A stretch of DNA of 64,000 nt from positions 15,337-79,336 of the forward strand of contig JALSLY010000069.1 of NCBI GenBank assembly GCA_026988035.1, in the 5' to 3' direction. Source of the stretch: Thermotogota bacterium. Its GTDB lineage: Bacteria > Thermotogota > Thermotogae > Mesoaciditogales > Mesoaciditogaceae. The notes under the pieces are model-generated. The model was not told where the DNA came from, searched no databases, and saw only the letters and a list, made by a program, of their open reading frames with translations. The first letter of the stretch is position 1. The number at the start of each line of letters is the position of its first letter. Both the position numbers and the translations under genes were made by a program. Positions 39,750-59,129 of this stretch are shown piece after piece.

Positions 39750-39750
39750 T

Positions 39751-42159: not shown

Positions 42160-43119
42160 TTGAAAAAAATAGCAGTTATGACAAGCGGAGGCGACGCTCC
42201 GGGAATGAACGCTGCCATAAGGGCTGTTGTCAGATATGCAGTGTCTAAAGGTGTAGAAGTGTATGGAATAATGAGAGGATACACCGGGCTTATCGAAAAT
42301 GATTTCGTACAGTTAAAATTTTCAGATGTTGGCGGAATTATGGAGCGTGGTGGGACTATTCTGAGAACTGCGAGGTGCGAAGAATTCAAGGTTGATCGTG
42401 GAAGGAAAGATGCCTATAAAATTTTGAAAGAACATCAAATAGACGGGCTTGTAGTCATAGGTGGAGATGGGAGTTTAACAGGTGCCACTTTGATTGCCAA
42501 TGAAAGTGATGTTAAGGTAGTTGGTGTTCCCGCAAGCATCGATAATGACATTCATGGCACTGACATGTGTATAGGTGTTGATACTTGCTTAAATACTGTG
42601 GTTGAAAACATACAAAAACTCAAAGATACCGCTTCTTCACATGAAAGAGCATTTATTGTGGAGACGATGGGGAGAAATTGTGGCTACATTGCACTTGTTT
42701 CAGGCATAACCACCGGAGCAGAAGCAATCGTAATACCCGAGGTAAAGGTAGATTTTCAGGCTTTGGCTGATAAGTTATTAGCTGGCAAAAAGAGAGGGAA
42801 GATAAACAGCATAGTTGTTGTTGCAGAAGGTGCTGCAAGTGCTTATACGGTTGCAAGGCATCTTGAAAATCGTACTGGTTATGAAACTCGTGTCACCATT
42901 CTTGGGCACATTCAACGTGGAGGATCCCCAAGTGCTTTTGATAGACTTTTGGCATGTCGATTGGGCTCCAGCGCAACTGAGGCTCTCCTTAACGGTCAAA
43001 ACGGCGTCATGATGGGTCTCCAATCTGATGGAATCGTATCTGTTGATCTAAGTGAAGCTCTTCAGACAAAAAAAGAACTCGATCTTGAATTGTACAAACT
43101 TGCCAACATACTTTCATGA
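42160..43119 (+). CDS. pfkA: ATP-dependent 6-phosphofructokinase
   Basis: [48 protein letters not shown] and LGH.QRGG are present; the protein is 319 aa. TTG start after AAGGGGTGAAG. Confidence 0.95.
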
Positions 43120-43129
43120 GGCGAAAGAT

Positions 43130-44560
43130 ATGAGAGAAAGAAAAACTAAGATAGTTTGCACTTTAGGACCAGCTACTACTGAAAGACATATGTTAGAGGC
43201 TCTCGTAAGGGCAGGTATGAACGTTGCTCGGTTGAACATGTCTCACGGTACTCATGAGGAAAAAGCTGCTATTATAGAAGAGCTTCGTGAGATAAGAAAA
43301 AGGCTTGGTATTCCTCTTGCCATAATGATCGATGTCGAAGGCCCAAAGATAAGAACTGGTAGATTAAAACACGAACATATTGTAATAAAGAAAGGATCTG
43401 TTCTCACGTTAACAACTGAAGAAATACTTGGGGACGAAAACAAAATATCCATTGACTATCCAGGATTACCAAACGATGTTAAATCGGGTGACAAAATTTT
43501 AATGAACGACGGCTTAATTGCATTAAGAGTGATATCTTCCACCAATAAAGATATAAAGTGTGAGGTCTTAAACACTGGAACTATAACGCATCACAGAGGA
43601 TTAAATCTTCCGGGAGTTGATCTAAAAATACCACCTTTTACTCCCAAAGACATGAAAGATCTCAAATTTGCTGCGGAGGTTAAACCCGAATACGTTGCAC
43701 AATCATTTGTTAGAAAAGCTGATGATGTTTTTAGAGCGCGTGAAATTCTGAAAAAGAATGGTATGGAAGATGTCAAAATAATTTCCAAAATCGAAACAAA
43801 GCAGGCCTTGGAAAATCTCTCAAAAATTTTGGATGCGTCAGACGGTGCCATGGTTGCGCGCGGAGATCTGGGAGTTGAAACTGATCCTGAAGATCTTCCA
43901 GTTGCTCAGAAAAGAATAATAAGCATGTGCAACCAACGTGCCATCCCGGTTATAACCGCTACACAAATGTTGGAATCTATGGTTAACAACCCACGTCCTA
44001 CTCGTGCTGAGATTACCGATGTAGCAAATGCGGTGCTGGATGGAACGGATGCTGTGATGCTCTCGGAAGAAACAGCTGTCGGGAATTATCCAATTGAGGC
44101 TGTAGAATTTATGGACAGAATCGCGAGAAAAGCCGAGAAATATATGGATATTTCTGAAAAAATGCGCATTTTTAGCGCAAAAAAATGTAAGGATGTAAGT
44201 GATGCGATTTCTCTATCTGCATGGCAGTTAAGTGTTGAACTGAAAAGTGAGGTAATAGTTGCTTCGACAAGTTCCGGATTGACCGCAAGGCACGTGTCAC
44301 GCTTCAGGCCTTCGGCGATGATCCTTTCTCCCACTCCAAGTAAATCAACTTACCACGCTCTTGCACTTGTATGGGGTGTGTTGCCAGTTATCGTGGATAA
44401 AGTTGAATCAACAGATGAGATGATAAATTTAGCTACTGAAAAGTTGCTCGCATTTGGTCTTGCAAACCCAGGAGATAAATTTGTGCTTACAGCCGGAATT
44501 CCATGGGGAATTTCTGGTACTACCAACATGATAAAAGTTCAAGAAGTTCCGAAAGTTTGA
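43130..44560 (+). CDS. pyk: pyruvate kinase
   Basis: The ATG at 43130 gives MRERKTKIVCTLGP. ARLNMSHG, KIISKIE, MVARGDLGVE, TQMLESM and ANAVLDGTDAVMLS.ETA.G.YP are present. The track ORF start at 43052 lies inside pfkA. Confidence 0.95.
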   Translation: MRERKTKIVCTLGPATTERHMLEALVRAGMNVARLNMSHGTHEEKAAIIEELREIRKRLGIPLAIMIDVEGPKIRTGRLKHEHIVIKKGSVLTLTTEEILGDENKISIDYPGLPNDVKSGDKILMNDGLIALRVISSTNKDIKCEVLNTGTITHHRGLNLPGVDLKIPPFTPKDMKDLKFAAEVKPEYVAQSFVRKADDVFRAREILKKNGMEDVKIISKIETKQALENLSKILDASDGAMVARGDLGVETDPEDLPVAQKRIISMCNQRAIPVITATQMLESMVNNPRPTRAEITDVANAVLDGTDAVMLSEETAVGNYPIEAVEFMDRIARKAEKYMDISEKMRIFSAKKCKDVSDAISLSAWQLSVELKSEVIVASTSSGLTARHVSRFRPSAMILSPTPSKSTYHALALVWGVLPVIVDKVESTDEMINLATEKLLAFGLANPGDKFVLTAGIPWGISGTTNMIKVQEVPKV

Positions 44561-44605
44561 TTTTTTGCAATATGCGTAAATTTAATTCTTGGGGGTGATG
44601 ATTTT

Positions 44606-47600
44606 ATGAAATCAAATCGTTTCCTGTTCTTTTTAGCAGTCTTAATTGCGATGGCAATGATTCTATCTGGATGCTTTTTATTCCCAAAGATCGGAGTACT
44701 TGTGAAACCAACTTTAATTTCACCACCTAATAAAGCAACTGGGATTTCAACAAATGTTGTCCTTTTATGGAAAGAAAAGGGTTCGTTTAAAAATCTTAAT
44801 TACCGTCTTTTTTTCGGTACTTCAAACCCTCCCGCTTATCAAAAAACAGTTGATACTACTCAAACAATTGAAAACAATCTCAAGTATTCCACAACATACT
44901 TTTGGCGAGTAGCCGCTGTCAACAAATCAGGAAAGGTTGCAACAAGTGACATTTGGCATTTTACAACGATGGCGTTGCCAACACCATCGACTCCGATTTT
45001 AAGCGTCACTTCAGTCTCAACAGATTCTGTTTCCTTACAATGGACCAAATCAGCAAATGCCGCCTCAATAACTTTGTATTCTGTGACATCAAATCAATTC
45101 AGCCAGGTGGTTACACTTTCTGGAACTACAACATCTTATACTTTGACGAATCTCGAACCAGCAACTGTTTATAAATTCTTTGTTGTGGCTTCAAACACAT
45201 CTGGAAAAGCGACATCGAATACAGTTACTGCAACTACTCAATCCATTCCAGCTCCTCCAAAACCGCCTCTTCCATCTACACCTGTTTTGAAAGTCACATC
45301 AATTTCAACTGATTCTGTTTCTTTGGGGTGGAGCAAATCGACAAACGCCTCAGCGATAGATGTTTATTCAGCGACATCAAATAAATTTAGTCAAATTGCA
45401 TCACTTTCTCCGAATGCGACGTCTTATATGGCAAATAATCTAAAGCCATCAACAACGTACAAGTTCTTCGTCGTTGCGACCAACCCATCAGGTAAAGCCA
45501 CATCAAACACGGTGACCGCGACAACTCAAAGCCTTCCCCCTTCAACACCGATTTTAAGTGTTGGATCAGTTTCAACAAACACAATAACTTTGAAATGGAC
45601 ACAGTCCAAAAATTCAAACTTGATAACGATTTATCAGGCAACCTCTGTTAACTTTTCTTCCATTGCAACGCTAACTGGCATAGCAACATCTTACAAAGTA
45701 AATGATTTGAAAGCGTTCACCACTTACAAATTCTTTGTAGTCGCATCAAATGAAACTGGACGTGCAACTTCAAACACAGTTGTCGCGACAACACTAAAAA
45801 TTGTTATTAAACCAAATCCACCAAAGATTTTCGTAAATTCACCAAACACTTATTCAACCCTTTTAACGTGGTCTGAAAGTTCAACAAATGTCGTAGGATT
45901 TCACATATGGAGACGTTCAAATTCAAATGAAGCCTATACACTTATAGCTTCTGTGAGTGAAAACAAGAACTCTTACACGGATATTGTTAATCCAGGTCAT
46001 ACTTATTCCTATATGGTGAGCGCGTACAATTCTGCTGGTCAATCTTTTTCGAAATCTGTATCTATCTTTGTTGGCCAGAACTATTTCCCCATGAAGACAA
46101 CGAGCTCACTTGTTACTGTAAATGCACAGCCTAGCGTTCAGCCTCAATCAACAAAAGTGCTTGGAAGCAATTCTTATTCGCTTTTGAACTTTATAAAAAC
46201 CTTTAAAGCAGCCGCTTCATCAGTTCAACTGATTCCGACAAATGAGGTTATAACCTATCAAAAATTGACGTCAAACGGGACCACAACCTACACGGTGAAC
46301 ATATCTTACGCGTTCGCTGGACAGCCCAACGTTGAACTCCATCTTTCCTTTTTGGTTGGGGATGAAAAAGTATATCTTCAAAATTTTGCATCTTACCCAA
46401 TTCTACTTCTCAACAGTATCTATGGCAACAAGCCATTATCTAAAACTCATGTGCTTTCGAATTCTTATTCGAGAAATGTGACTTACATATCTCAAATGAC
46501 TTTTGGAAACCACACATATAACAACGTTCTCAAAGTTACTTTGACAGGCCCTACCATGACACTCGTTTTTTATCTTGCTCCCAACGAAGGTTTAATGAGA
46601 GTTGACGTGCTGATTGATAGTTCCACAGCATTCTCTTATACTGTAACATCCACATCCACAACGATACCACCTGTTTATCCACAAACACCGGTTATAGTGA
46701 GTCCGGCCGCTAATTCAACCGTACCTTCAACGTTCACACTTAAATTTAGCGGAGATTCAAGCACTTACACCATTTATTTGAACTCACAAACGCTGATCTC
46801 AACATCATCGACAATTGTGGAAATTGGACCACTAAGCGATGGAACTTACACCTTATCTATAAAAGCCGCTAATTCTTATGACCTCGAAACTCTAAGTCAA
46901 GCTGTAAATTTCACAGTCCAAGGTGGATGGACGGCTACTCCAACATATGTCGTTGGAGATTTCACGAATTGGGCGACGAATTCAAACTATGAGATGAGCT
47001 ACGATCCTGTGAATAAAACTTATTCACTCACCACGAGTGTCCCGGCCCCAGCTTCCACATTGACTTACGGCATAAATCGCTACTTGATAGAACAAGTGTA
47101 CAAAGGTGAAATTGTAAAATATGGCTACCAGCCAATTCCCATAACAAGTGAAAATGTAACATTTTACTTCAATCAGTCTATGGCGAAGCCTTTCACATCT
47201 GATGGTATAGGAGATACGTCGAAGGAAAATCGAAGTTGGTACTTTGCCTCAGACATAAATGGTTGGACCTTTTCACAAATGCAAGCATCGGGCACGACAT
47301 TTGTCGCAACTGTGGCAACAAACGGTGCTTTTGAGCCGGGAACGTACGGATTCAAAATAACTCCACAAGCCGCTTTTTCAACTACCCCTGCGAGCTTGAT
47401 ATCTTATTACTTCAACGGATCTTACGGGGCGTATTACTTGCCGAATGGAAGTTTCTCGATTGCTACACCATCAAACGAAATCGTTGTGAAGTTCAACATT
47501 TTGAATTCAAAAATCACCTTCGAAGCGACAAATGTAACTTCGGTTTATCTAAGGAGCAGTTTTAGCAGCTGGTCGGCTAATATGCCAGACTATAAATTCA

Positions 47601-50600
47601 AATACGATCCGTTCACCGGTATCTATTCTTTGACCACAGAAGTACCATCCACAACTGGTCAGCAAGAATATAAAGTAGTTTACAACGGCGCATGGTATGG
47701 AGGTAACAACATACCAGTTAAATCTGGTACCGTAACGTTCTACTTTGATCCATCAATTGCTACAGATCCAAGCAAAGCTGTTGGTATAGGTGACACTTCA
47801 AAAGAATCGATGACGTGGTATTACGCAGGAGATTTAGGTGAAACGTGGAGCAAACCTCAGCAAATGCAATATATAGGTAACGGCACTTTCGTTGCTACAG
47901 AAACTGGTAATTTTAGTGTCGGCAATTACTACTTTAAAATTACACCCAACGTCAGTTGGGCATCTTCGCCATACTATTACAATGGAAGCATTTGGGGAAA
48001 CTTCAGTAGTAGTAGCAATGCGGGCTCTCTTCATCTTTCAACTGCGGCATCAAAAGTGGTGGTTGAATTCAACGTCCTGAAAAGCCTTGTGACACTTCAT
48101 CCTGTGATTTCTCCAACATATTACGTTGCCGGAAATTTCGACGGTTGGCAAAACGTTGTTGGCAATTCTAATTACAAAATGTCGCCTAATTCTTCCGGCA
48201 TTTACACGCTTAGCATGACATTACCCTCCACGACTGGTCAATACCAGTACAAGATAGTGGAATGGACGGGAACTCAAACCGTATGGTATGGAGGACCTGG
48301 TTCTAATGCGAATTATGGAAACATACCGGTTAAATCGGGAAACGTCACATTTTATTTTGATCCATCTATTGCAAGTGGTTCTCCATCTGGAGGAAACTCA
48401 GATGTAGGCATCGGCGATACGACAAAAGAGACTATGAAGTGGTACTTCGCTGGTGACATAAACAACTGGAGATTTGCAACGATGACATATGTTGGCAACG
48501 GCACTTTCGCCGCAACTATAACAAGGCCCGCGACGGATGATTCTGCCGGTGCTTATGGATTCAAAATAACACCTCAATCTACATGGAGCACACAACCTGC
48601 GAGTTTGACGCAGTATTACTTCAACGGTGGCTACGGTGGCTACTCTTCTCCCAATAACGGTACTGTAGTAGTTCCTCAGGCAACTACTGTTGTCGTTGAT
48701 TTCAACGTTTTAAACAGCTCAGTTAGTGCTAAAGCCGCCAAAATTCAGACGCTTCATCAGGTCATAATGGCGTATTTGGATTCGATGGATGAAATTCACG
48801 CAACACTTAACTCTACTGTTAATACTTCAAATCTTTCGCAGTTCAAATTTAGCGTTAACGGACACAACACTCCCATTTCTTCTGTTGTCGATGCAAATAC
48901 TGGATTGTCCGGAATCTCGAATTACATCACGATAAATCTTTCTACGCCTTTGAACCTATCTGATGTGGCAAGTTCTATGGTTCTAACTATAAATAACTTT
49001 AGCCCGGCTACAGTTTACGCCAGATACGCTCTTAACAATTCTGCTTTTCATTACGATGGCCAGCTTGGCGCGATTTACTCGCCTTACCAAACGACGTTTA
49101 AAGTGTGGTCACCTGTATCAGATCAAGTCGATCTTTTGCTTTTTAAAAACGCAAATGACACAACACCATACGCGACATACGCCATGACAAGAAATTCTCA
49201 AGGCGTATGGTCGACAAGCGTGATGGGAGATTTGAACGGAGTGTACTATGAATATTCTTATCACAGATATGGCGAATGGATAAGTGCGCCTGACATATAT
49301 TCCAAAGCCGCGAACGCCGATAACACTAAATCCATGGTGATCGATCTTTCGCAAACAGATCCATCTGGATGGAATGTTGATACAGCTCCATTCCCGAATA
49401 ACATGGTTGATGCGATCATATATGAATTGCACGTCCAGGACTTCACGGACAATCCCAACTCTGGAGTTTCACCTCAGTATCAAGGCACTTACATGGGATT
49501 CACGCAAACAGGCACAACTTACGATGGAATGCCAACGGGAGTAGATCATCTTGCTCAACTTGGAGTTAACTACGTGCAGCTTCTGCCGATAGAAGATTAT
49601 GAGGATCCACAAAATCCAGGATATAACTGGGGATACGTTCCCTACCTTTACATGGTGCCGGAGTCCAAATATTCCACAACTCCAAACGATCCGGCAAATA
49701 CAATTAATGAAGTCAAACAGATGATCGAGTCGCTTCATTCAAAAGGAATAGGTGTGATTTTAGACATATCTTTCAGCCACACATCGTACGTGACAACTCC
49801 ATACACAGCCGCAGTTCCATACTATTACTACAATTACAACGAGTATGGACAGAAAACGAATTACTCTGGAGTTGGAAATGATTTGGCAACCGGAAATTAC
49901 ATGGTTGAGAAGCTGATCGTCGACACGTTGAAATATTGGATGACGCAGTACCATATTTCAGGATTCAGATTTGACCAAATGTATCTGTACGATCCACAAA
50001 CCATCCAAGATATAGTACAAACACTTCGTGCATTGGATCCCGGTGTACTTCTCTATGGAGAGCCATGGAAAGCGAGTGGATACAAATTTACGTATTACGA
50101 TCAACGTGGAATGGATCTTGGTGTCTTTAACGGCTATTTCAGAGACGCGATGATAGGAACAGCTGACAATCCGACAGCAATGGGTTTTGTAAACGGCAAC
50201 GCTACAAGTACAAGTGTTCAAAGTGATATAAAGTCTGGAATTGTGGGAAGCGTTCCTTTTGAGACTCTTCCAAATACATTCGCTGCTGAACCTGATGAAA
50301 GTATAAATTATTCCACATGTCATGATAACTACACACTTTGGGACAAAATAACAATGGCTCAGCCAACTTGGAGCGCATCTGAAGACATCGCAGCTCAAAA
50401 ACTTGCAGGAGCAATTGTGATGCTCTCACAAGGAGTCGCCTTTATGCAAGGTGGAGCGGAATTTGCACGAACGAAAGATGGAAATGGAAATTCCTATAAT
50501 GTCCAGAGTCCGAACGAATTCGATTGGTCAAGACTCACACAATTTGCAACTGTTGATAGCTACTACCAAGGGCTGATAGCTATAAGAAAGGCTCATCCAG

Positions 50601-50884
50601 CTTTCAGGATGACATCATCTCAAGATATAGATGATAATTTGATTTTTCTTTCTGGGCTTGCCAATGGCGTGATTGGATATGAAATAAACGGAGGCTCTGT
50701 TGGTGATTCATGGTCTGACATCGTGGTTTACTTTAACGCTAATACAACAGCAAAAACTGTAACCTTACCAACTGGGACATGGAATATAGCTGTGAATGGA
50801 GCGATGGCGTCAACGAGCTCAATTGGCACAGCTTCAGGAACGATTCAAATTGTCCCATTGAGTGCCTACGTGTTCTATAAGTGA
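44606..50884 (+). CDS. giant cell-surface lipoprotein pullulanase (GH13 type I pullulanase catalytic core with FN3 and carbohydrate-binding-like modules)
   Basis: There is a signal peptide with the lipobox LSGC (Cys23). About five FN3-like modules follow, then three ~200-aa repeated modules (YVVGDFTNW / YVAGNFDGW). A CBM48-like segment (LGAIYSPYQTTFKVWSP) follows. The GH13 regions are YNWGYVPYLYM, GIGVILDISFSHT, GFRFDQM, YGEPW and YSTCHDN. Confidence 0.85.
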   Translation: MKSNRFLFFLAVLIAMAMILSGCFLFPKIGVLVKPTLISPPNKATGISTNVVLLWKEKGSFKNLNYRLFFGTSNPPAYQKTVDTTQTIENNLKYSTTYFWRVAAVNKSGKVATSDIWHFTTMALPTPSTPILSVTSVSTDSVSLQWTKSANAASITLYSVTSNQFSQVVTLSGTTTSYTLTNLEPATVYKFFVVASNTSGKATSNTVTATTQSIPAPPKPPLPSTPVLKVTSISTDSVSLGWSKSTNASAIDVYSATSNKFSQIASLSPNATSYMANNLKPSTTYKFFVVATNPSGKATSNTVTATTQSLPPSTPILSVGSVSTNTITLKWTQSKNSNLITIYQATSVNFSSIATLTGIATSYKVNDLKAFTTYKFFVVASNETGRATSNTVVATTLKIVIKPNPPKIFVNSPNTYSTLLTWSESSTNVVGFHIWRRSNSNEAYTLIASVSENKNSYTDIVNPGHTYSYMVSAYNSAGQSFSKSVSIFVGQNYFPMKTTSSLVTVNAQPSVQPQSTKVLGSNSYSLLNFIKTFKAAASSVQLIPTNEVITYQKLTSNGTTTYTVNISYAFAGQPNVELHLSFLVGDEKVYLQNFASYPILLLNSIYGNKPLSKTHVLSNSYSRNVTYISQMTFGNHTYNNVLKVTLTGPTMTLVFYLAPNEGLMRVDVLIDSSTAFSYTVTSTSTTIPPVYPQTPVIVSPAANSTVPSTFTLKFSGDSSTYTIYLNSQTLISTSSTIVEIGPLSDGTYTLSIKAANSYDLETLSQAVNFTVQGGWTATPTYVVGDFTNWATNSNYEMSYDPVNKTYSLTTSVPAPASTLTYGINRYLIEQVYKGEIVKYGYQPIPITSENVTFYFNQSMAKPFTSDGIGDTSKENRSWYFASDINGWTFSQMQASGTTFVATVATNGAFEPGTYGFKITPQAAFSTTPASLISYYFNGSYGAYYLPNGSFSIATPSNEIVVKFNILNSKITFEATNVTSVYLRSSFSSWSANMPDYKFKYDPFTGIYSLTTEVPSTTGQQEYKVVYNGAWYGGNNIPVKSGTVTFYFDPSIATDPSKAVGIGDTSKESMTWYYAGDLGETWSKPQQMQYIGNGTFVATETGNFSVGNYYFKITPNVSWASSPYYYNGSIWGNFSSSSNAGSLHLSTAASKVVVEFNVLKSLVTLHPVISPTYYVAGNFDGWQNVVGNSNYKMSPNSSGIYTLSMTLPSTTGQYQYKIVEWTGTQTVWYGGPGSNANYGNIPVKSGNVTFYFDPSIASGSPSGGNSDVGIGDTTKETMKWYFAGDINNWRFATMTYVGNGTFAATITRPATDDSAGAYGFKITPQSTWSTQPASLTQYYFNGGYGGYSSPNNGTVVVPQATTVVVDFNVLNSSVSAKAAKIQTLHQVIMAYLDSMDEIHATLNSTVNTSNLSQFKFSVNGHNTPISSVVDANTGLSGISNYITINLSTPLNLSDVASSMVLTINNFSPATVYARYALNNSAFHYDGQLGAIYSPYQTTFKVWSPVSDQVDLLLFKNANDTTPYATYAMTRNSQGVWSTSVMGDLNGVYYEYSYHRYGEWISAPDIYSKAANADNTKSMVIDLSQTDPSGWNVDTAPFPNNMVDAIIYELHVQDFTDNPNSGVSPQYQGTYMGFTQTGTTYDGMPTGVDHLAQLGVNYVQLLPIEDYEDPQNPGYNWGYVPYLYMVPESKYSTTPNDPANTINEVKQMIESLHSKGIGVILDISFSHTSYVTTPYTAAVPYYYYNYNEYGQKTNYSGVGNDLATGNYMVEKLIVDTLKYWMTQYHISGFRFDQMYLYDPQTIQDIVQTLRALDPGVLLYGEPWKASGYKFTYYDQRGMDLGVFNGYFRDAMIGTADNPTAMGFVNGNATSTSVQSDIKSGIVGSVPFETLPNTFAAEPDESINYSTCHDNYTLWDKITMAQPTWSASEDIAAQKLAGAIVMLSQGVAFMQGGAEFARTKDGNGNSYNVQSPNEFDWSRLTQFATVDSYYQGLIAIRKAHPAFRMTSSQDIDDNLIFLSGLANGVIGYEINGGSVGDSWSDIVVYFNANTTAKTVTLPTGTWNIAVNGAMASTSSIGTASGTIQIVPLSAYVFYK
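44984..45793 (+). repeat. three tandem paralogous FN3-module repeats inside the pullulanase gene
   Basis: The protein repeats STP(I/V)L.V.S(V/I)ST(D/N).(V/I)(S/T)L.W..S.N......Y.ATS..FS..A.L......Y....L...T.YKFFVVA.N..G.ATSNTV.ATT occur three times (about aa 127-212, 224-309 and 313-396). Confidence 0.8.
46921..48735 (+). repeat. three tandem ~600-nt modules (each a pair of carbohydrate-binding-like beta-domains) inside the pullulanase gene
   Basis: Three protein patterns recur three times: Y(V/L)..(D/S)F..W...(S/P)(N/D)Y.(M/F).YD/P....YSLT...PS; VTFYF(N/D)(Q/P)S.A...S..(V/I)GIGDT(S/T)KE...WY(F/Y)A(S/G)D; and Y.FKITP(Q/N)..(F/W)(S/A)(T/S).P. Confidence 0.6.
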
Positions 50885-51388: not shown

Positions 51389-52081
51389 TTAACGTGTTAG
51401 TTTGTTGTAAAGTAGTTGAAAGGCGTGAACAGCCACTCTTTCTATTTCAGCAACCGTTAGCTTCAACGGCTCGATCATCATTAAAGGCATAATGATGATT
51501 AGATTAAAAAGTGCTTGTATTGAAAAACCGTAAACAACAAAAACCGCAAGCGAATTCAACGCTATGATCACTGCAAAAAATTCAAATCCTGCACTGTTAG
51601 AACGCGGGCGAAAGTCGAAAACCTTTAAAGTCAGATAGGCAATTTTTGAAAATACTGCGATAACAAAGGCACAAAACAGGAAAACCAAGAGCACCCACCA
51701 ATCACGAAACAGCGGTGGTATTTCAAATCCCACAATCCATCCAAGTTTGTAAAGAATCAAAACCAGCGACCAAAAGAGTGGCCCTTCAGCTAAAAAGATC
51801 GACAATCCATTTATCTTCATCATGATCGAGATCGACATTGGAACGATAAAGAGAATGAAAAACAGTGATCCACCTAAATCATTAAATGCAAAGATTATCA
51901 CGGAAGCCACCACAACGATTCTTAACCATTCAGAACGTGATTGATTCATGGCATACACAAGTGGAAACACAGCTAAGTAACTTATGGCCGTTCCAATCCC
52001 GTAGATCATTTGAAATGTATAGATAAGAGCAGTTAAAGCCCCCAAAATGGCACTTTCAGCATTTTGCCGTGCTTTAGTCAT
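51389..52081 (-). CDS. hypothetical integral membrane protein (about 6 TM segments)
   Basis: 230-aa ORF, strongly hydrophobic throughout. I recognise no catalytic motif. Confidence 0.65.
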   Translation of the reverse strand: MTKARQNAESAILGALTALIYTFQMIYGIGTAISYLAVFPLVYAMNQSRSEWLRIVVVASVIIFAFNDLGGSLFFILFIVPMSISIMMKINGLSIFLAEGPLFWSLVLILYKLGWIVGFEIPPLFRDWWVLLVFLFCAFVIAVFSKIAYLTLKVFDFRPRSNSAGFEFFAVIIALNSLAVFVVYGFSIQALFNLIIIMPLMMIEPLKLTVAEIERVAVHAFQLLYNKLTR

Positions 52082-52130: not shown

Positions 52131-52394
52131 TTAACCATTCAATTCTTTTCTAAGCCCCTTTTGTGATGTGAAACCTGTTTTTTTCTGGATATTCTTGTGT
52201 TTTACTGCGGAACTTCTTTTCTCGATTGGACTCACAGCGAGTTTTAAAATATCTTCTGGAACTTTTGAAAGATTTTCCAAGTACATTTCAAGGGCTTTGC
52301 GCATAAGATAACTTTTGGGCCTGTCAAGTTTCTGGGCATATTTTTCAAGTTTCCTCTCAAGTTTTTCTGGCAATCTAAGAGATATCAATTTCAT
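52131..52394 (-). CDS. ribbon-helix-helix (CopG/MetJ-type) DNA-binding protein
   Basis: MKLISLRLPEKLERKLEKYAQKLDRPKSYLMRKALEMYLE is a textbook RHH strand-helix-helix N-terminus, followed by a basic tail. Confidence 0.75.
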   Translation of the reverse strand: MKLISLRLPEKLERKLEKYAQKLDRPKSYLMRKALEMYLENLSKVPEDILKLAVSPIEKRSSAVKHKNIQKKTGFTSQKGLRKELNG

Positions 52395-52509
52395 AGTATC
52401 ACCTCGTATTACATTATATCACAAAGCAAAAATTCATCTGCAAACAAAAAACGTTTAACGTTCCATTAACTTCCCACCCGTATAATTTTGTACAAACAAC
52501 AAATAATGG

Positions 52510-52524
52510 TGGTGGAGTCCACCA
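52510..52524. promoter_or_regulatory. 7-1-7 palindrome in the divergent intergenic region (candidate operator)
   Basis: TGGTGGA-G-TCCACCA read directly. It lies about 50 nt upstream of the first gene of the membrane complex and about 115 nt upstream of the divergent RHH gene. Confidence 0.35.
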
Positions 52525-52576
52525 GAAAGCTTTTTAGCCAATGACTCCTACCCATCCCACGGATAGGAGGTTTTTT

Positions 52577-53530
52577 ATGCTGTTAATTTTTCTAAGCATT
52601 TTGCAGTTGTTCTATGTGCTACTGCTTTCACCGTTAATCTTCGGAATCTTTTCAAAATTCGAAGAGAGAATCGAATCTAAAAAAGGACCAAGTATTTTTC
52701 AACCTTACTACGATCTTTTCAAACTTTTTAGAAAACAAGTCGTCGTCCCTGAGGTGTCGTCTCCGTTTTTTCATGTGGTGCCTTACGTAGAATTTGCATT
52801 GTACTCGCTTTTGACGTTAGTCCTACCAATAATAACGGCCTTTCCACTTGAATTTGGGCCAACGGTGGATTTCATCGGTGGAGGTTTGATCTTTGGAGCA
52901 GCAGCGCTGTTGAAGAAAATAGCATCTTTGGACAGTCGAAGCAATTATTCGCATCTTGGAGTTTCTCGAGCAGCAAGCATGGGAGCATTGGCAGAACCAA
53001 TAACGGTTTTAATATTCATTATGTTAGGCGTTATCTCAAAGACAAATAACCCTTACATCATAAACAACGTACTTCAAACATCATCAAGTTGGTATCTTTC
53101 GTTGACACACTGGTTTGTTGCCGCTGCATTTTTCATGATCTTGCTTGTTGAAACCGGAAAACTTCCAATAGAACATCATTCCACAGCTGAGCTTGGTATG
53201 ATTGATCAGGCAATGGATCTGGAGTACTCAGGAATGGACCTCGCCTTCTACAAATGGGGAGGATATATAAAGAAATTTTTGCTCATGAGTGTGTTTGTGA
53301 ACGTGTATACGGTGCCGTTTTTCGTACCTATGAAGTATAATCTGTCTTCGATTGCCATATATACAGGAATTCACTTTTTAAAGCTTCTCGGTCTTGTGAT
53401 TAGTATGGGGCTATTAGAGGAAAGTATTTCAAAATTCAGACTCTTCAAAAATTTCGATTACATGGCTATCTCCTTCTCTTTGGCCTTTCTGAGTTTCTTG
53501 GCGTTTTACACAACGAATGGAGGTTTCTAA
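52577..53530 (+). CDS. NuoH / HycD / HyfC-like membrane subunit
   Basis: A polytopic membrane protein of about 317 aa. The ATG at 52577 lies 7 nt after GGAGG. The charged loop motifs (PIEHHSTAELGMIDQAMDLEYSG) are typical of the NuoH/HycD quinone-chamber subunit family. Confidence 0.75.
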   Translation: MLLIFLSILQLFYVLLLSPLIFGIFSKFEERIESKKGPSIFQPYYDLFKLFRKQVVVPEVSSPFFHVVPYVEFALYSLLTLVLPIITAFPLEFGPTVDFIGGGLIFGAAALLKKIASLDSRSNYSHLGVSRAASMGALAEPITVLIFIMLGVISKTNNPYIINNVLQTSSSWYLSLTHWFVAAAFFMILLVETGKLPIEHHSTAELGMIDQAMDLEYSGMDLAFYKWGGYIKKFLLMSVFVNVYTVPFFVPMKYNLSSIAIYTGIHFLKLLGLVISMGLLEESISKFRLFKNFDYMAISFSLAFLSFLAFYTTNGGF

Positions 53531-53531
53531 G

Positions 53532-54167
53532 ATGGAGAAGTTTTTCGCACTTATTGGCTTTTTTGAGATACTGCTGGTTCTCTTTATGCAATGGGAAGTG
53601 TATACCAAGAAAATCATCACAACCTTTTCCATAGCGTCTTACACGATCGCCGTCTTTTTGTTTTATCTTGGAATCATGGAAAACAAGTATCTGGTCGTTA
53701 TCCTGGCAGTTCTCACGGCTGGGGTAAGAGGATTTTTTATACCATGGTTTATGAAAAAAAGAATAGTCAGGGATCCATGGAGAGAAAGGGAAATAAAACC
53801 AACGATAAGCACGGCTTTATCGATATTAATATCACTTTCTGTGGTAATCTTCGCTTACGTGCTGTACAGGATCACATTTTACGATTCGGTTCACCTTTCG
53901 GATGGTTCCATACCAATAGCACTGATTCTCCAGGGAGTTTTCTTAATGATTTCAAGAAGAAATGCCTTCATTCAGCTTATAGGCTACATGATGATGGAAA
54001 ACGCCATCTTTTTATTCGAGGGCTATCTTTTTCCAGCGCTCCCATTTATTGTTGAGGCGGGAGTTATTCTTGATCTGATAGGTATCATCGCGATAGCGGG
54101 AATTGTGGTTAAGATGATGAAAAACTCCACGACAGATTCAAATGAATTCGACGAGTTGAAAGGATGA
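53532..54167 (+). CDS. HyfE-like small membrane subunit (hydrogenase-4 component E family)
   Basis: About 211 aa with 6-7 TM segments. The size and position between HyfC-like and HyfF-like genes match hyf-type operon order. The ATG at 53532 follows GGAGG. Confidence 0.65.
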   Translation: MEKFFALIGFFEILLVLFMQWEVYTKKIITTFSIASYTIAVFLFYLGIMENKYLVVILAVLTAGVRGFFIPWFMKKRIVRDPWREREIKPTISTALSILISLSVVIFAYVLYRITFYDSVHLSDGSIPIALILQGVFLMISRRNAFIQLIGYMMMENAIFLFEGYLFPALPFIVEAGVILDLIGIIAIAGIVVKMMKNSTTDSNEFDELKG

Positions 54168-54173
54168 ATTGAG

Positions 54174-55553
54174 ATGGGATACATTTACTCACTTCCAATG
54201 ATTTTTACCGCTATAGGTGCCGTGCTGTGTTTGAGTAGGAGCATGTATTTTGAAGAATTTGTTTCCGTGATATCTGCCCTCGCCACAGTTGTTGTGACAG
54301 GCACTGTTGTTTTTCTTCCCGATTTTTCAAATGGCTTTCTCTATATAGATGGTCTTTCAAAAATCATGCTCATTATGATATCTGCCATATACACATCAAC
54401 AGTCATTTTCTCAACAACGTACATGAAGTATATAGAGAATCCTCTCTTTGAGAAGAATTTTTACTACTTTTTGATGAATCTCTTTGCGTTCACGATGTTC
54501 TTCACGGTTTCTGTTAACAATTTTGGGTTGATGTGGGTAGGAGTGGAAGCTACAACGGTCACAAGTGCACTCCTGGTAGCGACTGAAAACAACGAGTCAT
54601 CCATGGAAGCAACATGGAGGTACATAATAATCGTGTCGTCTGGTTTGATAATCTCACTGCTTTCGAACGTATTCATATACAGTGCCACACACACACTTTC
54701 ACTCTCGATGCTCATGTCTATGAAGGTCACAAATGCTGGTAAGATTTTAACGCTCGGCTCAATGATGGCCATTGTTGGATACGGAACAAAAGCCGGGATC
54801 TTTCCAATGCACACCTGGCTTCCGGACGTTCATGGCAAGGCACCAGCACCTGTTAGTGCCATATTTTCTGGTGTGCTCTTACCTGTGGCACTTTATGTCA
54901 TGGCTCGAATACTTCAAATTGTACCTGTTGAGAGTGTTAGAATATTCTCATTTGCACTTGGATTCTTGACAGTCTTAATTGCCGCAGTATTAATGGTGGC
55001 TCAAGGACATTACAAACGCCTTTTTGCATACTCAACAATGGAGAACATGGGAATGGCTCTGATCGGTTTATCACTTGGGAAATACGCTTTCATTGGGGCA
55101 ATAATTTTGTTAATATCGCATGCCTTTGCCAAGTCATCGGCATTTTTTCTTACCGGAAATGTGCTTGCGAAATACAAATCTCATAAAATGACTGATGTAA
55201 AAGGGATATCAAAGCGTATGCCTTTTACTGCCTATACACTCATGTTCTCTTCAATGGCTGTTACCGGCACGCCTCCTTTCGGCACATTCATAGGAGAGTT
55301 TATGATAATCTATGGCATGCTCTTGAACTTTCCACTCTTTTACACTTTAACACTTGTGGGATTCCTTGCACTGGCCTTCATAGCTGTAAATTTCAAGATC
55401 GGAAAGATGATCTTCTCAGAGTCCGATGGTGAAATGATGGAGAGAAAGAGAGTTGGAAGGATTGTACCCATGGTGAATACGTCCCTCGCCTTCCTTGTCG
55501 TCTTCTTAATACCGCAAATCCAGGAGATTCTTTCCAAGGGGATGATAAGATGA
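54174..55553 (+). CDS. Mrp/NuoM/N/HyfF-like antiporter-type membrane subunit
   Basis: Proton_antipo_M signature region: GYGTKAGIFPMHTWLPDVHGKAPAPVSAIFSGVLLPVALY ... AYSTMENMG. 459 aa. Confidence 0.85.
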   Translation: MGYIYSLPMIFTAIGAVLCLSRSMYFEEFVSVISALATVVVTGTVVFLPDFSNGFLYIDGLSKIMLIMISAIYTSTVIFSTTYMKYIENPLFEKNFYYFLMNLFAFTMFFTVSVNNFGLMWVGVEATTVTSALLVATENNESSMEATWRYIIIVSSGLIISLLSNVFIYSATHTLSLSMLMSMKVTNAGKILTLGSMMAIVGYGTKAGIFPMHTWLPDVHGKAPAPVSAIFSGVLLPVALYVMARILQIVPVESVRIFSFALGFLTVLIAAVLMVAQGHYKRLFAYSTMENMGMALIGLSLGKYAFIGAIILLISHAFAKSSAFFLTGNVLAKYKSHKMTDVKGISKRMPFTAYTLMFSSMAVTGTPPFGTFIGEFMIIYGMLLNFPLFYTLTLVGFLALAFIAVNFKIGKMIFSESDGEMMERKRVGRIVPMVNTSLAFLVVFLIPQIQEILSKGMIR

Positions 55554-56785
55554 AGAAACTTCTAGGTGCTTACATACAAGATGGTAGGAAGTATATCATC
55601 CTTCAAGAGAATGGAAAAGTTGTTGCGTTAGAAGGAAATGCAAGTGAGTTTAAGAATTCAGAGCTCCTGAAAAACAGAAATGAGTATGTAAAAAATGTGT
55701 TAGAAAAAGAAGAGATCTATGGCGATGACGTCTTCGATTTCAGATACGGTCCTGTCACAAGCGGAGTCGGAGAAGCTGGAGTTTACCATCTTTACACATA
55801 TGGCGAAAGAATTTTATCGGTAAAAATCGATACTTCTTATAAAAGGCGAGCCCTGGACGATAAAATGATAAGCTCTGATATTAACGATGCACTGAAACTC
55901 TCAGAAGAGATATGCGGTAACTTTGCCATTTCGCATTCCATAGCATTTTCAAGAGCCGTTGAGAACGCTCTGAAGATAGAAGTAAGTAGGGATATCAAAG
56001 CTTTGAAGGCGATTGCCATAGAACTCGAGAGAATTTACAACCACCTTTATGTGATATCCAGACTTGCCGGAGCCGCGGCTCAACAAGTCCTCGCCTCGCA
56101 TCTTATGGGCCTTTTTGAAGATTCGCTCGTTGTCAACAAAATCTTCTCTGGTTCCAGATACCTGATCAGATTCAACTCGATAGGCAGCGTGCTCAGATTT
56201 CCATCGCATGAAGAATTAAAAGATGTGACAGATAAGGTTAAAAAAATCAAAAGCGCCTTTTCGGAATTGTACAAGAATTCAATGTCGAGCGGGAATTACA
56301 TCGACAGGTTGCACCTCACCGCCACTTTAAGCGCAAAAGACGCGGAACTCATAGGGCTGACCGGTCCGAGCTTAAGAGCCTGTGGAGTGAAAGAAGACTT
56401 AAGGACTCATGATGAGATCTATCGCGGAATAAAAATAGTATCAGATGAAGAGGGGGATGCGCTTTCAAGAATGGAAGTGCGAGCCGGAGAGATTCTTGAA
56501 AGCTTGAAATTCATCCAGAAAACAGTTGATAATTTAAGCTTGGATAAAGCGATGCCTTTCATTTCAACTGAAAGTGGTGAAGGAATTGGATGGAGTGAAT
56601 CCCCCAGTGGAACGATCATCTACCATGTTGAGATAGAGAACTTTAGAATCAAGAGCGTTTATGTGTCAACGCCTTCCGTTTTCGGGATGTCTGCTATAGC
56701 ACATTCAATGGTTGGCAATATATTCACAGATTTTCCATTTGCTGTGGAGTCTTTTGGCGTCAATTTCTCAGACGCGGCGAGATGA
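55550..56785 (+). CDS. NuoD / HycE-large-subunit-like protein lacking the NiFe-binding cysteines
   Basis: 411 aa. The family blocks LSEEICGNFAISHS (position of RxCGxCxxxH), ELERIYNHL and GLTGPSLRACGVKEDLR are present. The C-terminus is ESFGVNFSDAAR (position of DPCxxCxxR). The start overlaps the upstream stop (ATGA). Confidence 0.8.
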   Translation: MKKLLGAYIQDGRKYIILQENGKVVALEGNASEFKNSELLKNRNEYVKNVLEKEEIYGDDVFDFRYGPVTSGVGEAGVYHLYTYGERILSVKIDTSYKRRALDDKMISSDINDALKLSEEICGNFAISHSIAFSRAVENALKIEVSRDIKALKAIAIELERIYNHLYVISRLAGAAAQQVLASHLMGLFEDSLVVNKIFSGSRYLIRFNSIGSVLRFPSHEELKDVTDKVKKIKSAFSELYKNSMSSGNYIDRLHLTATLSAKDAELIGLTGPSLRACGVKEDLRTHDEIYRGIKIVSDEEGDALSRMEVRAGEILESLKFIQKTVDNLSLDKAMPFISTESGEGIGWSESPSGTIIYHVEIENFRIKSVYVSTPSVFGMSAIAHSMVGNIFTDFPFAVESFGVNFSDAAR

Positions 56786-56797
56786 GGGGTGGTATTG

Positions 56798-57256
56798 ATG
56801 AAATGGTGGCCAATGGTTGGAATATCAAAGATGCTAACCGAGGATAAAAAGTACGAATCTAAAGCGCGTGTGAAAAAAATGGGGATTTTCAGAAGATCTT
56901 TTCACATCTATACGATAGACGTTGGAAATTCCAACATTCTCAATTTTGAAATGCGAGCACTTCAAACTCCAAAATACAACGTCCACAGATTCGGTATATA
57001 TTTTGCCGCTTCTCCACGACATGCAGATTTGTTGATCGTTTTGGGAAGGCCGACAAAAAAGATGGTCGCCCCCCTTTTGGAAACTATCAATCAAATTCCA
57101 GAACCTTTCGGTGTCATACTTCTAAAAGGCTGCGGGAGTAGCGGAATTGATCTTGACGAATTAAAACTTCCAAACGTTGTGGCAAGCGTGAATGGGTGTC
57201 CAGAGCCTTCGGAGATCCTCGCCATTCTTTTAAAAATATCTGGAAGGGTTGATTAA
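56798..57256 (+). CDS. NuoB / HycG-small-subunit-like protein with an incomplete Fe-S cysteine set
   Basis: SFHIYTIDVGNSNILNFE, YNVHRFGIYFAASPRHADLLIVLG, PEPFGVILLKGCGSSG and VNGCPEPSEIL are collinear with the NuoB/HycG blocks. The GTG at 56789 is an alternative start. Confidence 0.75.
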   Translation: MKWWPMVGISKMLTEDKKYESKARVKKMGIFRRSFHIYTIDVGNSNILNFEMRALQTPKYNVHRFGIYFAASPRHADLLIVLGRPTKKMVAPLLETINQIPEPFGVILLKGCGSSGIDLDELKLPNVVASVNGCPEPSEILAILLKISGRVD

Positions 57257-57257
57257 G

Positions 57258-59129
57258 ATGATTTGCATATACTTTTCTTTCCTGTTTTTTGCACTTGGAG
57301 CATTGACCACGTTTTCAAAGAGATTGAGCTACAGTATGGCAACGATCGCATCCGCTCTTGCATTCGTAACGGCGCTCTTGGGTATGCACACCACTTTCGC
57401 TTCCGGCACGTACCTACTCCTCAACGGGTTCAGCCTGAGCATAGGAATGGATCATACAAGCGCGATCTTTTTGCTTATCGCATCGATATCGTGGTTTGCC
57501 ATTTCACTGTACTCTATAGATTATGGCATGAATTATTCCAAAAAGATGCCGATTTTCTTCAACGCTGCACTTTTCGGAATGTTTCTCGTTTTGATAGCCA
57601 GAGATGCATTAACATTTATAGGTGGATGGGAGATAGCTACGATTTTCTCTTATCTTTTGATAATGGAACACAAACACTCTTTCAAAGAAGCGTTCGAATT
57701 TCTCGCGTTTGGTGAAATTTCAACCGTCTCATTACTCGTCGCCTTTGCATCCCTTTATCTCAAGAATCATTCGCTCGCAATCATTGGAGCACACGGAACC
57801 TGGATTTTTTTGCTCATGGCTACGATAGCATTCATGACAAAAATGGGTACCTATCCGTTGCACACATGGCTTATAGGTGCACATTCCAGAGCTCCTTCGA
57901 ACGTTTCCGCGTTTTTGAGTGCACCATTGACTTTGATGGGTGTTTACGGTCTGGTAAGGGCGTTATCCATAGCTGGTCAACCCGAATGGTGGGGCGTGGC
58001 GGCAATGATCTTTGGTGGATTTTCCGCGTTCTGGGGCGCTTTGCAAGCCGCAGCAGCCAAAGGGCTCAAAATATTACCGGCGTATTCAACTGTTGAAAAC
58101 AACGGGATGATTCTCGCGACGTTGGGATTGTCTGTAACTGCGTACAGTGCACATTTGGCAGTGTTATCTTCTTTTGCCATGATCACATCGCTGATCTTGC
58201 TTTTTGCACACAACACGACAAAATCACTTTTGTTCATGGCGGTAGGCCATGCAAAAGAAGCGCTTGATGAAGACACGATCGACAACGTCAGAGGTATATG
58301 GACATCAGTTGGCAAGATCCCGGCAATATCCATATTGATCTCGGGACTTTCTTTCAGTGCTTTTCCACCACTAATTGGATTTCTTGGCGAATGGATGACG
58401 CTGGAAGCGCTCTTTCAATCGTACAAATTTCCATCCATGTTAGATAGACTAAGCGCCGCATTTGTGGGAATACTAATAGCCCTTGCAATGGGAATGGCAG
58501 CGTTTTCAATGGTGAAACTCACAGGATACACGGCGCTTGGATATGATCACGGCAAAAAGGCAAGAAATATCTCATCATTCACCATGAAGCTTTCTGAAAT
58601 GCTCCTTTCTCTTACCGTTCTGTTGGCAGGACTCTTTTCTCCATACATATTGAAGTATTTTGGGTACGGGACTTTTCTATCCGGTCTCTTTGGAGTTCCA
58701 AAACCGTTTCTTATCGTTTCTTCTCACCCTGTCTTCGGTGTGGTTTCACCTACATTTCTGGCAGTCGTTATCGGAACTCTGTTTCTGTTTCCTCTGATAT
58801 TTTACTTGGCAAAATCGGGAAAAGTCAAAAGGGTTAGCGCCTGGAACGGTGGTATAGCTCTAAAAGAGGAAGAATACTTTACGGCACCGGCTTACTCGTT
58901 TACCCTTGAGTACATAATGAGAAAAGTGTACTCTATGAAAGAGATCAAGCATGGAAACAAAAGATACGTCTCAGTCAAAGATATTACAACATCATTTTAC
59001 AACGGCTTGAAACATGCAGTGGAAATCATGGCCAAATCCTTATCACTCACTTTGATGAACGGACACGTATATTCGTACGTACTGTACACGATGATCATGT
59101 TTGTTCTCCTCTTTTTTATGGTTAAGTAA
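57258..59129 (+). CDS. NuoL / HyfB / HycC-like antiporter-type membrane subunit
   Basis: About 623 aa. Proton_antipo_M region: KMGTYPLHTWLIGAHSRAPSNVSAFLSAPLTLMGVYGL ... AYSTVENNG. The TTG at 57249 is an alternative start. Confidence 0.85.
   Translation: MICIYFSFLFFALGALTTFSKRLSYSMATIASALAFVTALLGMHTTFASGTYLLLNGFSLSIGMDHTSAIFLLIASISWFAISLYSIDYGMNYSKKMPIFFNAALFGMFLVLIARDALTFIGGWEIATIFSYLLIMEHKHSFKEAFEFLAFGEISTVSLLVAFASLYLKNHSLAIIGAHGTWIFLLMATIAFMTKMGTYPLHTWLIGAHSRAPSNVSAFLSAPLTLMGVYGLVRALSIAGQPEWWGVAAMIFGGFSAFWGALQAAAAKGLKILPAYSTVENNGMILATLGLSVTAYSAHLAVLSSFAMITSLILLFAHNTTKSLLFMAVGHAKEALDEDTIDNVRGIWTSVGKIPAISILISGLSFSAFPPLIGFLGEWMTLEALFQSYKFPSMLDRLSAAFVGILIALAMGMAAFSMVKLTGYTALGYDHGKKARNISSFTMKLSEMLLSLTVLLAGLFSPYILKYFGYGTFLSGLFGVPKPFLIVSSHPVFGVVSPTFLAVVIGTLFLFPLIFYLAKSGKVKRVSAWNGGIALKEEEYFTAPAYSFTLEYIMRKVYSMKEIKHGNKRYVSVKDITTSFYNGLKHAVEIMAKSLSLTLMNGHVYSYVLYTMIMFVLLFFMVK

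Follow-up and report, generated by a model that had tools for sequence, protein, structure and literature searches.

The window analyzed here, a 64,000-nucleotide stretch of a Thermotogota contig (JALSLY010000069.1), carries a six-gene operon whose leader contains a fluoride riboswitch with a terminator platform. This organization is conserved in both bacterial and archaeal phyla. The fourth gene of the operon encodes a NuoD/HycE-like large subunit, which is predicted to belong to a six-subunit membrane complex of the Ehr type, resembling complex I and the membrane-bound hydrogenase MBH. Judging from alignments, this large subunit is unable to bind a NiFe centre and lacks the quinone-binding His and Tyr of NuoD; more generally, the complexes of the bacterial clade, that of the window included, appear to have no recognizable redox cofactor site at all. 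We propose that the complex might act as a fluoride-induced, redox-independent, Mrp-like cation/proton exchanger, a reading to which we give about an even chance.

The large subunit lacks the NiFe and quinone positions

The large subunit matches two Pfam families, Complex1_49kDa (6.2e-21) and NiFeSe_Hases (N-terminal part, 1.8e-07). The NuoD, FpoD and hydrogenase models of NCBIfam all score far under their cutoffs, the best of them being the NuoD model NF004739 (109 bits versus a cutoff of 360), with TIGR01962 reaching 75.9 bits for a cutoff of 459. The top phmmer matches among the sequences of the PDB are MbhL (6cfw_L, 5e-24) and HycE (7z0s_E, 6e-21), and in the phmmer alignments the segment EEICGNFAISH stands opposite ERMCGICSFSH of MbhL and DRVCGICGFAH of HycE. 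Structure modeling, which an earlier note on this DNA had proposed as a check, gave a confident AlphaFold2 model (pLDDT 90.8, pTM 0.92) that Foldseek places closest to HycE (7z0s_E, TM-score 0.90), followed by MbhL (6cfw_L, TM-score 0.80) and then by NuoD chains, so that the predicted fold is that of the large subunit of a group 4 [NiFe]-hydrogenase. A short N-terminal β-sheet of ~60 residues may be a remnant of a NuoC domain.

The equivalences of the NiFe ligands were read from a MAFFT alignment of E. coli HycE and NuoCD with 120 homologues of the large subunit. The first ligand of HycE, C241, corresponds to C122, a position occupied by Cys in 113 homologues, Ser in six and Ala in one; the second, C244, corresponds to F125, which is Phe in 120 of 120; the third, C531, to N405, at a position that is variable in the family (N, H, Y, F or S); and the fourth, C534, to D408, which is Asp in all 120 homologues and also in NuoCD. 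Neither of the two motifs of group 4 [NiFe]-hydrogenases is thus present: EICGNFAISH is found in the place of RxCGxCxxxH and GVNFSDAAR in that of DPCxxCxxR. The protein terminates at the conserved Arg of the latter motif and therefore has no C-terminal extension for proteolytic maturation. Its only other cysteine, C278, lies opposite the Ser of HycE GPMVRASG, in a column that holds Cys in 52, Thr in 32, Ser in 27 and Ala in eight homologues; since this position varies, it is not a ligand position. These results agree with the earlier note, which had claimed that the protein holds two cysteines in total, that the first cysteine of the N-terminal motif is kept with the second replaced by Phe, that both C-terminal cysteines are replaced, by Asn and Asp, and that the second cysteine of the protein is not a metal ligand. 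Its further claim that a NiFe site cannot be assembled is supported by the alignment, where three of the four ligand positions are not Cys and where comparison with HycE, MbhL and NuoD brought no further cysteine to these positions. Likewise, the note had failed to find the quinone-site context of NuoD: the columns of the quinone His and Tyr of NuoCD hold T70 and G123, with Thr in 109 of the 120 homologues at the His column and Gly, Ser, Ala or Thr at the Tyr column.

Dozens of residues are invariant across the large-subunit family. Around the former active site, N124, F125, H129, G403, F406 and D408 are invariant or nearly so, and E75 is present in 101 of the 120 homologues. In the archaeal large subunits, the first NiFe cysteine is gone as well (Thr, Ala or Ser), and the N124 column holds Asn, Gln, Pro or Val. 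Relatives have Ser, Ala or Thr in place of the retained Cys, so its position is best described as one for a small residue rather than for a residual metal ligand, and the fixation of the substitutions across phyla argues that they did not arise by chance. Altogether, the NiFe-less pattern appears to be the signature of a whole conserved family of the Ehr type, not an oddity of one gene.

Three other assignments of the protein were considered and rejected. That it might be a true hydrogenase conflicts with the state of both NiFe motifs; that it might be a true NuoD conflicts with the absence of the quinone ligands and with the NuoD model scores under the cutoffs. A Zn site or carbonic-anhydrase-like site built from Cys, His and Asp is unsupported, given the Ser, Ala or Thr that replaces the Cys in relatives.

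The small subunit has lost the [4Fe-4S] positions

The product of gene 5 is a NuoB/HycG-like small subunit that PF01058 matches with 22.9 bits, below the cutoff of 27, and along its N-terminal half alone; no Fer4 match was found in Pfam. The set of four cysteines that binds the proximal or N2 [4Fe-4S] cluster in small subunits of the NuoB/HycG kind is incomplete: in the alignment, VDCGGCNGCEIE of HycG stands opposite IDVGNSNILNFE of the small subunit, the first two ligand cysteines are gone and N-x-L-N-F is found where C-x-x-C is expected. The remaining C115 and C137 lie at ligand positions 3 and 4, are not conserved and are relics. Among the bacterial orthologues (n=61), ligand position 1 is Ser, Asp or Asn and position 2 is Leu in 58, with no fixed residue at positions 3 and 4; conservation is poor throughout the C-terminal half of the protein. 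The small-subunit open reading frame (ORF) opens with GTG at 56789 (MVLMKWWP); most homologues start with MKWWP, and the true start may be the ATG at 56798.

The archaeal small subunits (loci L066-L081, from Thermococcus, DHVE2/Aciduliprofundum and Thermoplasmata) keep all four cysteines, give a full PF01058 match (66-88 bits) and have an N-terminal extension that is rich in Cys and faintly resembles Fer4. The archaeal operons could represent the redox-competent ancestral state of a fluoride-linked complex.

These observations bear on the possibility that the complex is still a redox-driven pump, with electrons donated by ferredoxin, formate or some other compound and entering by way of an unlinked partner and of a cofactor site of an unconventional kind. 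This is what the label 'formate hydrogen lyase' implies, and such a pump would be in line with the FDH-Ehr complexes that have been proposed (PMC6349859), with the higher abundance of the Geobacter Ehr complex on formate (PMC7894505), with the four cysteines and the extension of the archaeal small subunits, and with the retention, in the bacterial clade, of the first NiFe cysteine and of E75, a proton-transfer Glu. It is difficult to reconcile with the bacterial small subunits, whose Fe-S positions are Ser/Asp/Asn, Leu and two variable residues, whose C-terminal half is degenerate and whose representative in the window scores under the Pfam cutoff, as well as with the replacement of the retained large-subunit Cys by Ser, Ala or Thr in relatives; furthermore, no Fe-S, flavin, molybdopterin or Hyp gene is found in the operon or recurs in the flanks of its relatives. 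We therefore regard a redox-driven pump as improbable. For the bacterial clade, remaining redox activity is unlikely, but the archaeal clade may still possess it.

A fluoride riboswitch precedes the operon

The aptamer of the fluoride riboswitch (crcB motif, RF01734) is the sole Rfam match in the whole window and lies directly before gene 1. The minimum-free-energy fold of the leader (52499-52585) combines the aptamer helices P1 and P3 with a terminator-like hairpin (52545-52569, CUCCUA.CC...GG.UAGGAG), which is followed by a G and then by six U (52571-52576). The hairpin takes its 5' arm from the aptamer, namely the conserved CUCCUAC at the aptamer 3' end, and its 3' arm includes the GGAGG ribosome-binding site, 7 bases ahead of the ATG at 52577. 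Such an overlap between aptamer and terminator is typical of transcriptional fluoride ON switches (PMC2864571). The hairpin was missed by a simple terminator scan because of its bulge. A promoter scan found no sigma-70-type promoter upstream of the operon, and no terminator was found after the operon end at 59129. The mechanically called ORF of gene 1 begins at 52541, inside the aptamer, and would be 12 codons too long if annotated so; the in-frame ATG at 52577, which lies behind GGAGG, and the length of the homologues (316-317 residues) make a start at this ATG likely, hence a protein of 317 residues.

The leader is conserved in the orthologues. A regular-expression search for the aptamer found it at 17 loci only and was superseded by a covariance model, R1, built from those 17 leaders. 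With R1, 48 of 61 loci, from both bacteria and archaea, showed an aptamer no more than 300 nt upstream of gene 1; the remainder includes four Bacteroidota loci where the aptamer lies ~1 kb upstream, before crcB, one locus (L009) where it lies at 6972-7032, within an over-extended ORF call for gene 1, and three loci that begin at a contig edge. Since R1 was trained on the same loci, the Rfam model RF01734 was used as an independent check: at its gathering score, an upstream aptamer was found in 14 of 20 other loci (6 of 7, then 8 of 13), the six others falling under that score with several closely resembling the aptamer of the window. The lineages confirmed by RF01734 comprise Hippea maritima, Thermococcus, Aciduliprofundum, Athalassotoga, Desulfurellales, Campylobacterales and Spirochaetales, and in H. 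maritima DSM 10411 (CP002606) the aptamer is located 18 nt ahead of the first operon gene.

Two further arrangements were seen around these leaders. In the window, the minus strand carries, divergent from the riboswitch, a CopG/ribbon-helix-helix gene (52131-52394) and an ORF of 230 codons (51389-52081) without any Pfam match. One Athalassotoga locus (L016) has two divergent fluoride riboswitches back to back, at 6809-6871 on the minus strand and at 6986-7045 on the plus strand, one of which faces the Ehr-like operon and the other the genes on the opposite strand; in loci of the Athalassotoga type, the upstream minus-strand genes appear to encode an ABC ATPase, an ABC-2-type permease and a MutS-related protein.

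Six intact genes encode the complex

The operon consists of six tightly packed, intact ORFs that encode, in this order, a NuoH-like, a HyfE-like and a HyfF-like subunit, the large subunit, the small subunit and a HyfB-like subunit (Table 1).

Table 1. Riboswitch elements and genes of the fluoride-riboswitch-linked operon, in window coordinates
Feature	Coordinates	Strand	Length	Evidence
Fluoride riboswitch aptamer (crcB motif, Rfam RF01734)	52499..52557	+		cmscan 37.0 bits versus gathering score 34, E = 1.3e-06, full model
Expression platform (terminator-like hairpin, G and U6)	52545..52576	+		minimum-free-energy fold, 52499-52585
Gene 1, NuoH/HycD-like membrane subunit (EhrB-like)	52577..53530	+	317 aa	Pfam PF00146 2.9e-25
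Gene 2, HyfE-like membrane subunit (EhrC-like, NuoK-related)	53517..54167	+		NCBIfam PRK11492 (hydrogenase 4 membrane subunit) 2.6e-10
Gene 3, HyfF/NuoM-like antiporter-type subunit (EhrD-like)	54174..55553	+		PF00361 2.6e-50; NCBIfam HyfF 436 bits
Gene 4, large subunit (EhrL-like, NuoD/HycE-like, without NiFe site)	55550..56785	+	411 aa	alignment and AlphaFold2 model
Gene 5, NuoB/HycG-like small subunit without [4Fe-4S] site (EhrS-like)	56789..57256	+	155 aa	PF01058 below cutoff
Gene 6, HyfB/NuoL-like antiporter-type subunit (EhrA-like)	57249..59129	+		PF00361 3.9e-29; NCBIfam HyfB 329 bits

In the NuoH-like subunit, Q54, K61, K65, D110, R143, E228/Y229 and K281 are invariant and also occur in NuoH or HycD; in the HyfE-like subunit, which also gives a weak PF00420 match, E161, E180, D186 and E213 are invariant. 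The two antiporter-type subunits retain the Glu of transmembrane helix (TM) 5, the Lys of TM7, the His of TM11 and the Glu of TM12. More specifically, E125, K206, H316 and E375 of the HyfF-like subunit are invariant (65 of 65 sequences), and so are E128, K198 and H321 of the HyfB-like subunit (71 of 71), with the TM12 Glu, E381, present in 70 of 71. The central Lys that NuoM, NuoN and HycC carry in TM8 is absent from both subunits, its position being fixed in each family as Pro (gene 3) or Leu (gene 6). The conservation of charged residues in all four membrane subunits shows that the ion-translocation machinery is under strong constraint.

A blastp comparison with E. coli proteins (E < 1e-4) found no homologue of HycB, HycF, HycH, HycI, HypA-E or NuoE/F/G/I among the ORFs of the window, nor is there a separate NuoC-like gene in the window alongside the large subunit. 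The absence of the HypA-E/HycI maturation system holds for the window, as distinct from the whole genome. The assignment of the operon as a formate hydrogen lyase was rejected, with no NiFe site in the large subunit and no HycB-, HycF- or NuoG-type homologue in the window or recurrent in the flanks of the relatives.

Distribution and gene neighborhood

Scanning one genome per species, we found relatives of the large subunit at 79 loci. The closest belong to uncultured Thermotogota near Mesoaciditoga (79-51% identity), the other bacterial ones to Athalassotoga, Desulfurellales/Hippea, Campylobacterota, Spirochaetota, Bacteroidota and Ignavibacteria, and the archaeal ones, at 30-35% identity, to Thermococcus, DHVE2/Aciduliprofundum and Thermoplasmata. 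Wherever the contig permits, the six genes stand in identical order, which amounts to ~79 loci in at least six bacterial phyla plus archaea. A profile search of 1.84 billion representatives returned 540 large-subunit relatives at E <= 1e-30. At 50% identity, the CGNF/FxD subfamily comprises about a dozen representatives; it differs from a type of ~500 residues with the pattern S..S..S..G and from a type with the pattern N..H/F..W..E, and its neighbors are other NiFe-less types and true four-Cys hydrogenases.

Because three of the four NiFe cysteines and the cluster ligands of the small subunit are lost, one may ask whether the operon is simply what is left of a group 4 [NiFe]-hydrogenase that has lost its function and is decaying. 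The six intact, tightly packed ORFs and their common order at ~79 loci speak against decay, as do the dozens of invariant residues, the fixation of the replacement residues themselves and the dedicated riboswitch conserved upstream, and we consider a remnant very improbable indeed. That the large-subunit gene could be a pseudogene was ruled out by its conservation.

Clustering of the ORFs that flank the relatives revealed no universal neighbor. The recurrent neighbors, confirmed by Pfam, encode MutS-related proteins, CrcB, CrcB-DUF190, enolase, inorganic pyrophosphatase, metallophosphoesterase, HAD phosphatase, MFS and DUF6062 proteins; these families are those of the known fluoride-riboswitch regulon. 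The operon is directly preceded by crcB in Bacteroidota loci, and most non-Bacteroidota loci have no crcB within 10 kb. Apart from a MutS homologue of canonical length (39739-42153), no other fluoride-related gene was found in the window.

Several Bacteroidota loci (L037, with six matches, L021, L025, L065, L044 and L055) have the look of a 'fluoride island', with several copies of the fluoride riboswitch in ~20 kb. The riboswitches of these islands precede genes for CrcB, CrcB-DUF190, DUF6062, a double-zinc-ribbon protein, MutS-domain-V proteins, enolase, pyrophosphatase, an MFS transporter and a 637-residue protein with a putative P-loop-like motif. To our knowledge, no role in fluoride biology has been described for several of these families. 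In H. maritima (CP002606, L082), a molybdenum/tungsten cofactor riboswitch (RF01055, 13598-13716, 87.5 bits) lies immediately downstream of the operon and precedes two genes for periplasmic binding proteins (PF13531). In addition, hypF, hypC and hypD are found ~3 kb downstream of the operon in H. maritima, where they probably serve the genuine hydrogenases of this organism.

Elsewhere in the window, positions 44606-50884 encode a 2092-residue multidomain glycoside hydrolase of the pullulanase type, with four FN3 domains, a CBM48, an X25 and an alpha-amylase catalytic domain. The GC skew is positive from position 1 to ~44 kb and negative or near zero beyond, with a cumulative peak near 44 kb; the turn at ~43000-45000 could be a switch point linked to replication, or it may simply reflect a different coding strand.

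Comparison with known systems

Ehr complexes are said to have been named by Coppi in 2005 and surveyed by Marreiros et al. in 2013. They are characterized by a group-4-hydrogenase-like large subunit without the CxxC NiFe motifs (PMC6349859, PMC10284858), and their operons comprise small, NuoH-like, HyfE-like, HyfB-like and HyfF-like subunits (PMC6349859, supplementary note 4), some of which are called EhrA, EhrC, EhrL and EhrS in Geobacter (PMC7894505). In Firmicutes and hyperthermophiles, NuoC is fused to the large and NuoI to the small subunit (PMC6349859, supplement). Ehr complexes, also treated in PMC7894505 and PMC4758237, are usually discussed as redox enzymes, FDH-Ehr being an example. 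The operon of the window has both Ehr features, that is, a large subunit without the NiFe cysteine motifs and an accompaniment of small, NuoH-like, HyfE-like and two Mrp/HyfB/HyfF-like subunits. It differs in that its large subunit, of 411 residues, has no Pfam match to the NuoC domain, in that its small subunit, of 155 residues, has neither a ferredoxin domain nor conserved [4Fe-4S] ligands, and in its placement under a fluoride riboswitch.

Baker 2012 is reportedly, by way of a review that cites it, a further source for 'formate hydrogen lyase' members of the fluoride-riboswitch regulon. The crcB motif was reported ahead of 'formate hydrogen lyase' genes in 2010 (Weinberg 2010, PMC2864571), and a 2024 review lists formate hydrogen lyase among the enzymes most commonly associated with fluoride riboswitches, taking the genes as genuine and their control as a shift to fermentative metabolism (PMC11139923). 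The operon shares with this regulon the overlapping terminator and neighbors such as crcB, enolase, pyrophosphatase, MutS-related and HAD phosphatase genes, and it is probably the very 'formate hydrogen lyase' that has long been listed; the proteins described here, however, cannot be a hydrogenase. They differ from formate hydrogen lyase by the lack of a NiFe site and of an FdhF, HycB or HycF partner and, in the bacterial clade, of any Fe-S site. In the limited body of literature that we searched, no paper tied NiFe-less complexes to fluoride.

MBH (6cfw) and E. coli Hyc (7z0s) match the large subunit best, both in sequence and in fold, and are also the closest matches to the small subunit; their membrane subunits are homologous to those described here; by comparison, the present complex is without NiFe site, proximal cluster, ferredoxin-like subunit and Hyp/HycI maturation system. 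With Mrp antiporters it shares two subunits of the MrpA/MrpD type, complete with TM5 Glu, TM7 Lys and TM12 Glu, the absence of redox cofactors and a likely role in stress and pH homeostasis. Mrp differs in having no NuoD-, NuoB- or NuoH-like subunits, and the operon described here differs in its six genes and in its sole small membrane subunit, which is HyfE-like; MrpB, MrpE, MrpF and MrpG were not searched for. Finally, the large subunit resembles NuoD, the 49-kDa subunit of complex I, in its fold, in having Asp instead of the fourth NiFe cysteine and in the C-terminal Arg, but it lacks the quinone His and Tyr (replaced by T70 and G123) and its NuoB-like partner lacks the N2 ligands.

Possible function of the complex

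In the exchanger model, for which the arguments on both sides seem to us about balanced, fluoride bound to the aptamer would block formation of the terminator and thereby turn the operon on. The complex would then exchange Na+ or K+ for H+ as a secondary ion translocator. As HF influx and fluoride efflux would acidify and de-energize the cell, this exchange would restore the cytoplasmic pH and the ion-motive force, and the cofactor-less module formed by the large, small and NuoH-like subunits would not be a catalytic redox site but a conserved cap for coupling or gating. Among fluoride-riboswitch targets, exporters are the commonest and Na+/H+ antiporters the second commonest (PMC11139923). 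An exchanger fits both this rank of the antiporters and the presence of crcB directly upstream of the operon in Bacteroidota.

Several points weigh against this interpretation. A pure antiporter has no obvious need for large and small subunits. The invariant residues at the former active site argue for a working pocket and not only for a cap. The archaeal relatives, which are also under riboswitch control, keep the four small-subunit cysteines and the Cys-rich extension, so that redox activity may predate the fluoride role. Moreover, the match with the published 'formate hydrogen lyase' targets of the riboswitch is one that we infer.

Alternatively, the complex itself might be an active exporter of fluoride (F- or HF). 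H+ or Na+ flow through the two antiporter-type subunits would then drive conformational changes where the large, small and NuoH-like subunits meet, and fluoride would be bound and expelled by the former NiFe/quinone pocket, which has Asn, Phe, His and Asp as its new lining. The riboswitch link is near-universal, and exporters head the list of riboswitch targets (PMC11139923). Invariant residues occur exactly at the former ligand positions (CGNF and G-x-x-F-x-D in the large subunit, N-x-L-N-F in the small subunit), and the recurrence of an Asn-Phe pair in both subunits suggests a working pocket rather than a passive cap. The edges of Phe rings and Asn are known fluoride ligands in Fluc. Many hosts (Mesoaciditoga, Athalassotoga, Hippea, Aciduliprofundum, Thermoplasmata) are, we assume, acidophilic vent organisms, and an exporter would be useful to acidophiles, in which the pH gradient concentrates fluoride inside the cell; the absence of crcB within 10 kb of most non-Bacteroidota loci points in the same direction. 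Yet the Bacteroidota loci, with crcB directly upstream, already have an exporter, N124 is not conserved in the archaeal clade, and we know of no complex-I-type machine that moves an anion. On balance, an exporter seems unlikely, though clearly ahead of a redox-driven pump, and slightly more doubtful still is the specific proposal that the former pocket has been rebuilt as a putative fluoride site, formed by CGNF, G-x-x-F-x-D and N-x-L-N-F, in an H+- or Na+-driven fluoride pump.

Implications

The loss of the NiFe site is by itself the defining feature of Ehr complexes and was already known; what is added here is the loss of the full set of cofactor sites together with the fluoride switch, and the riboswitch control gives a first functional handle on the complex. 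Two literatures are thereby joined, that on Ehr complexes of unknown function and that on the 'formate hydrogen lyase' genes listed with fluoride riboswitches since 2010. If these are the same genes, as we infer, then the fluoride-controlled genes encode cofactor-less, complex-I-like machines and not hydrogenases. The complex would also provide a natural complex-I/MBH scaffold without redox chemistry, useful for the study of the coupling between peripheral and antiporter modules. There is also the possibility of a new kind of fluoride-resistance transporter: should a fluoride pump prove true, it would be the first complex-I-type machine with an anion as substrate instead of electrons, and Fluc (CrcB) and CLC-F would be joined by a third class of fluoride exporter. 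A cultured host with both operon and riboswitch exists, H. maritima DSM 10411. Ehr-type complexes gain a testable physiological context, that of fluoride stress.

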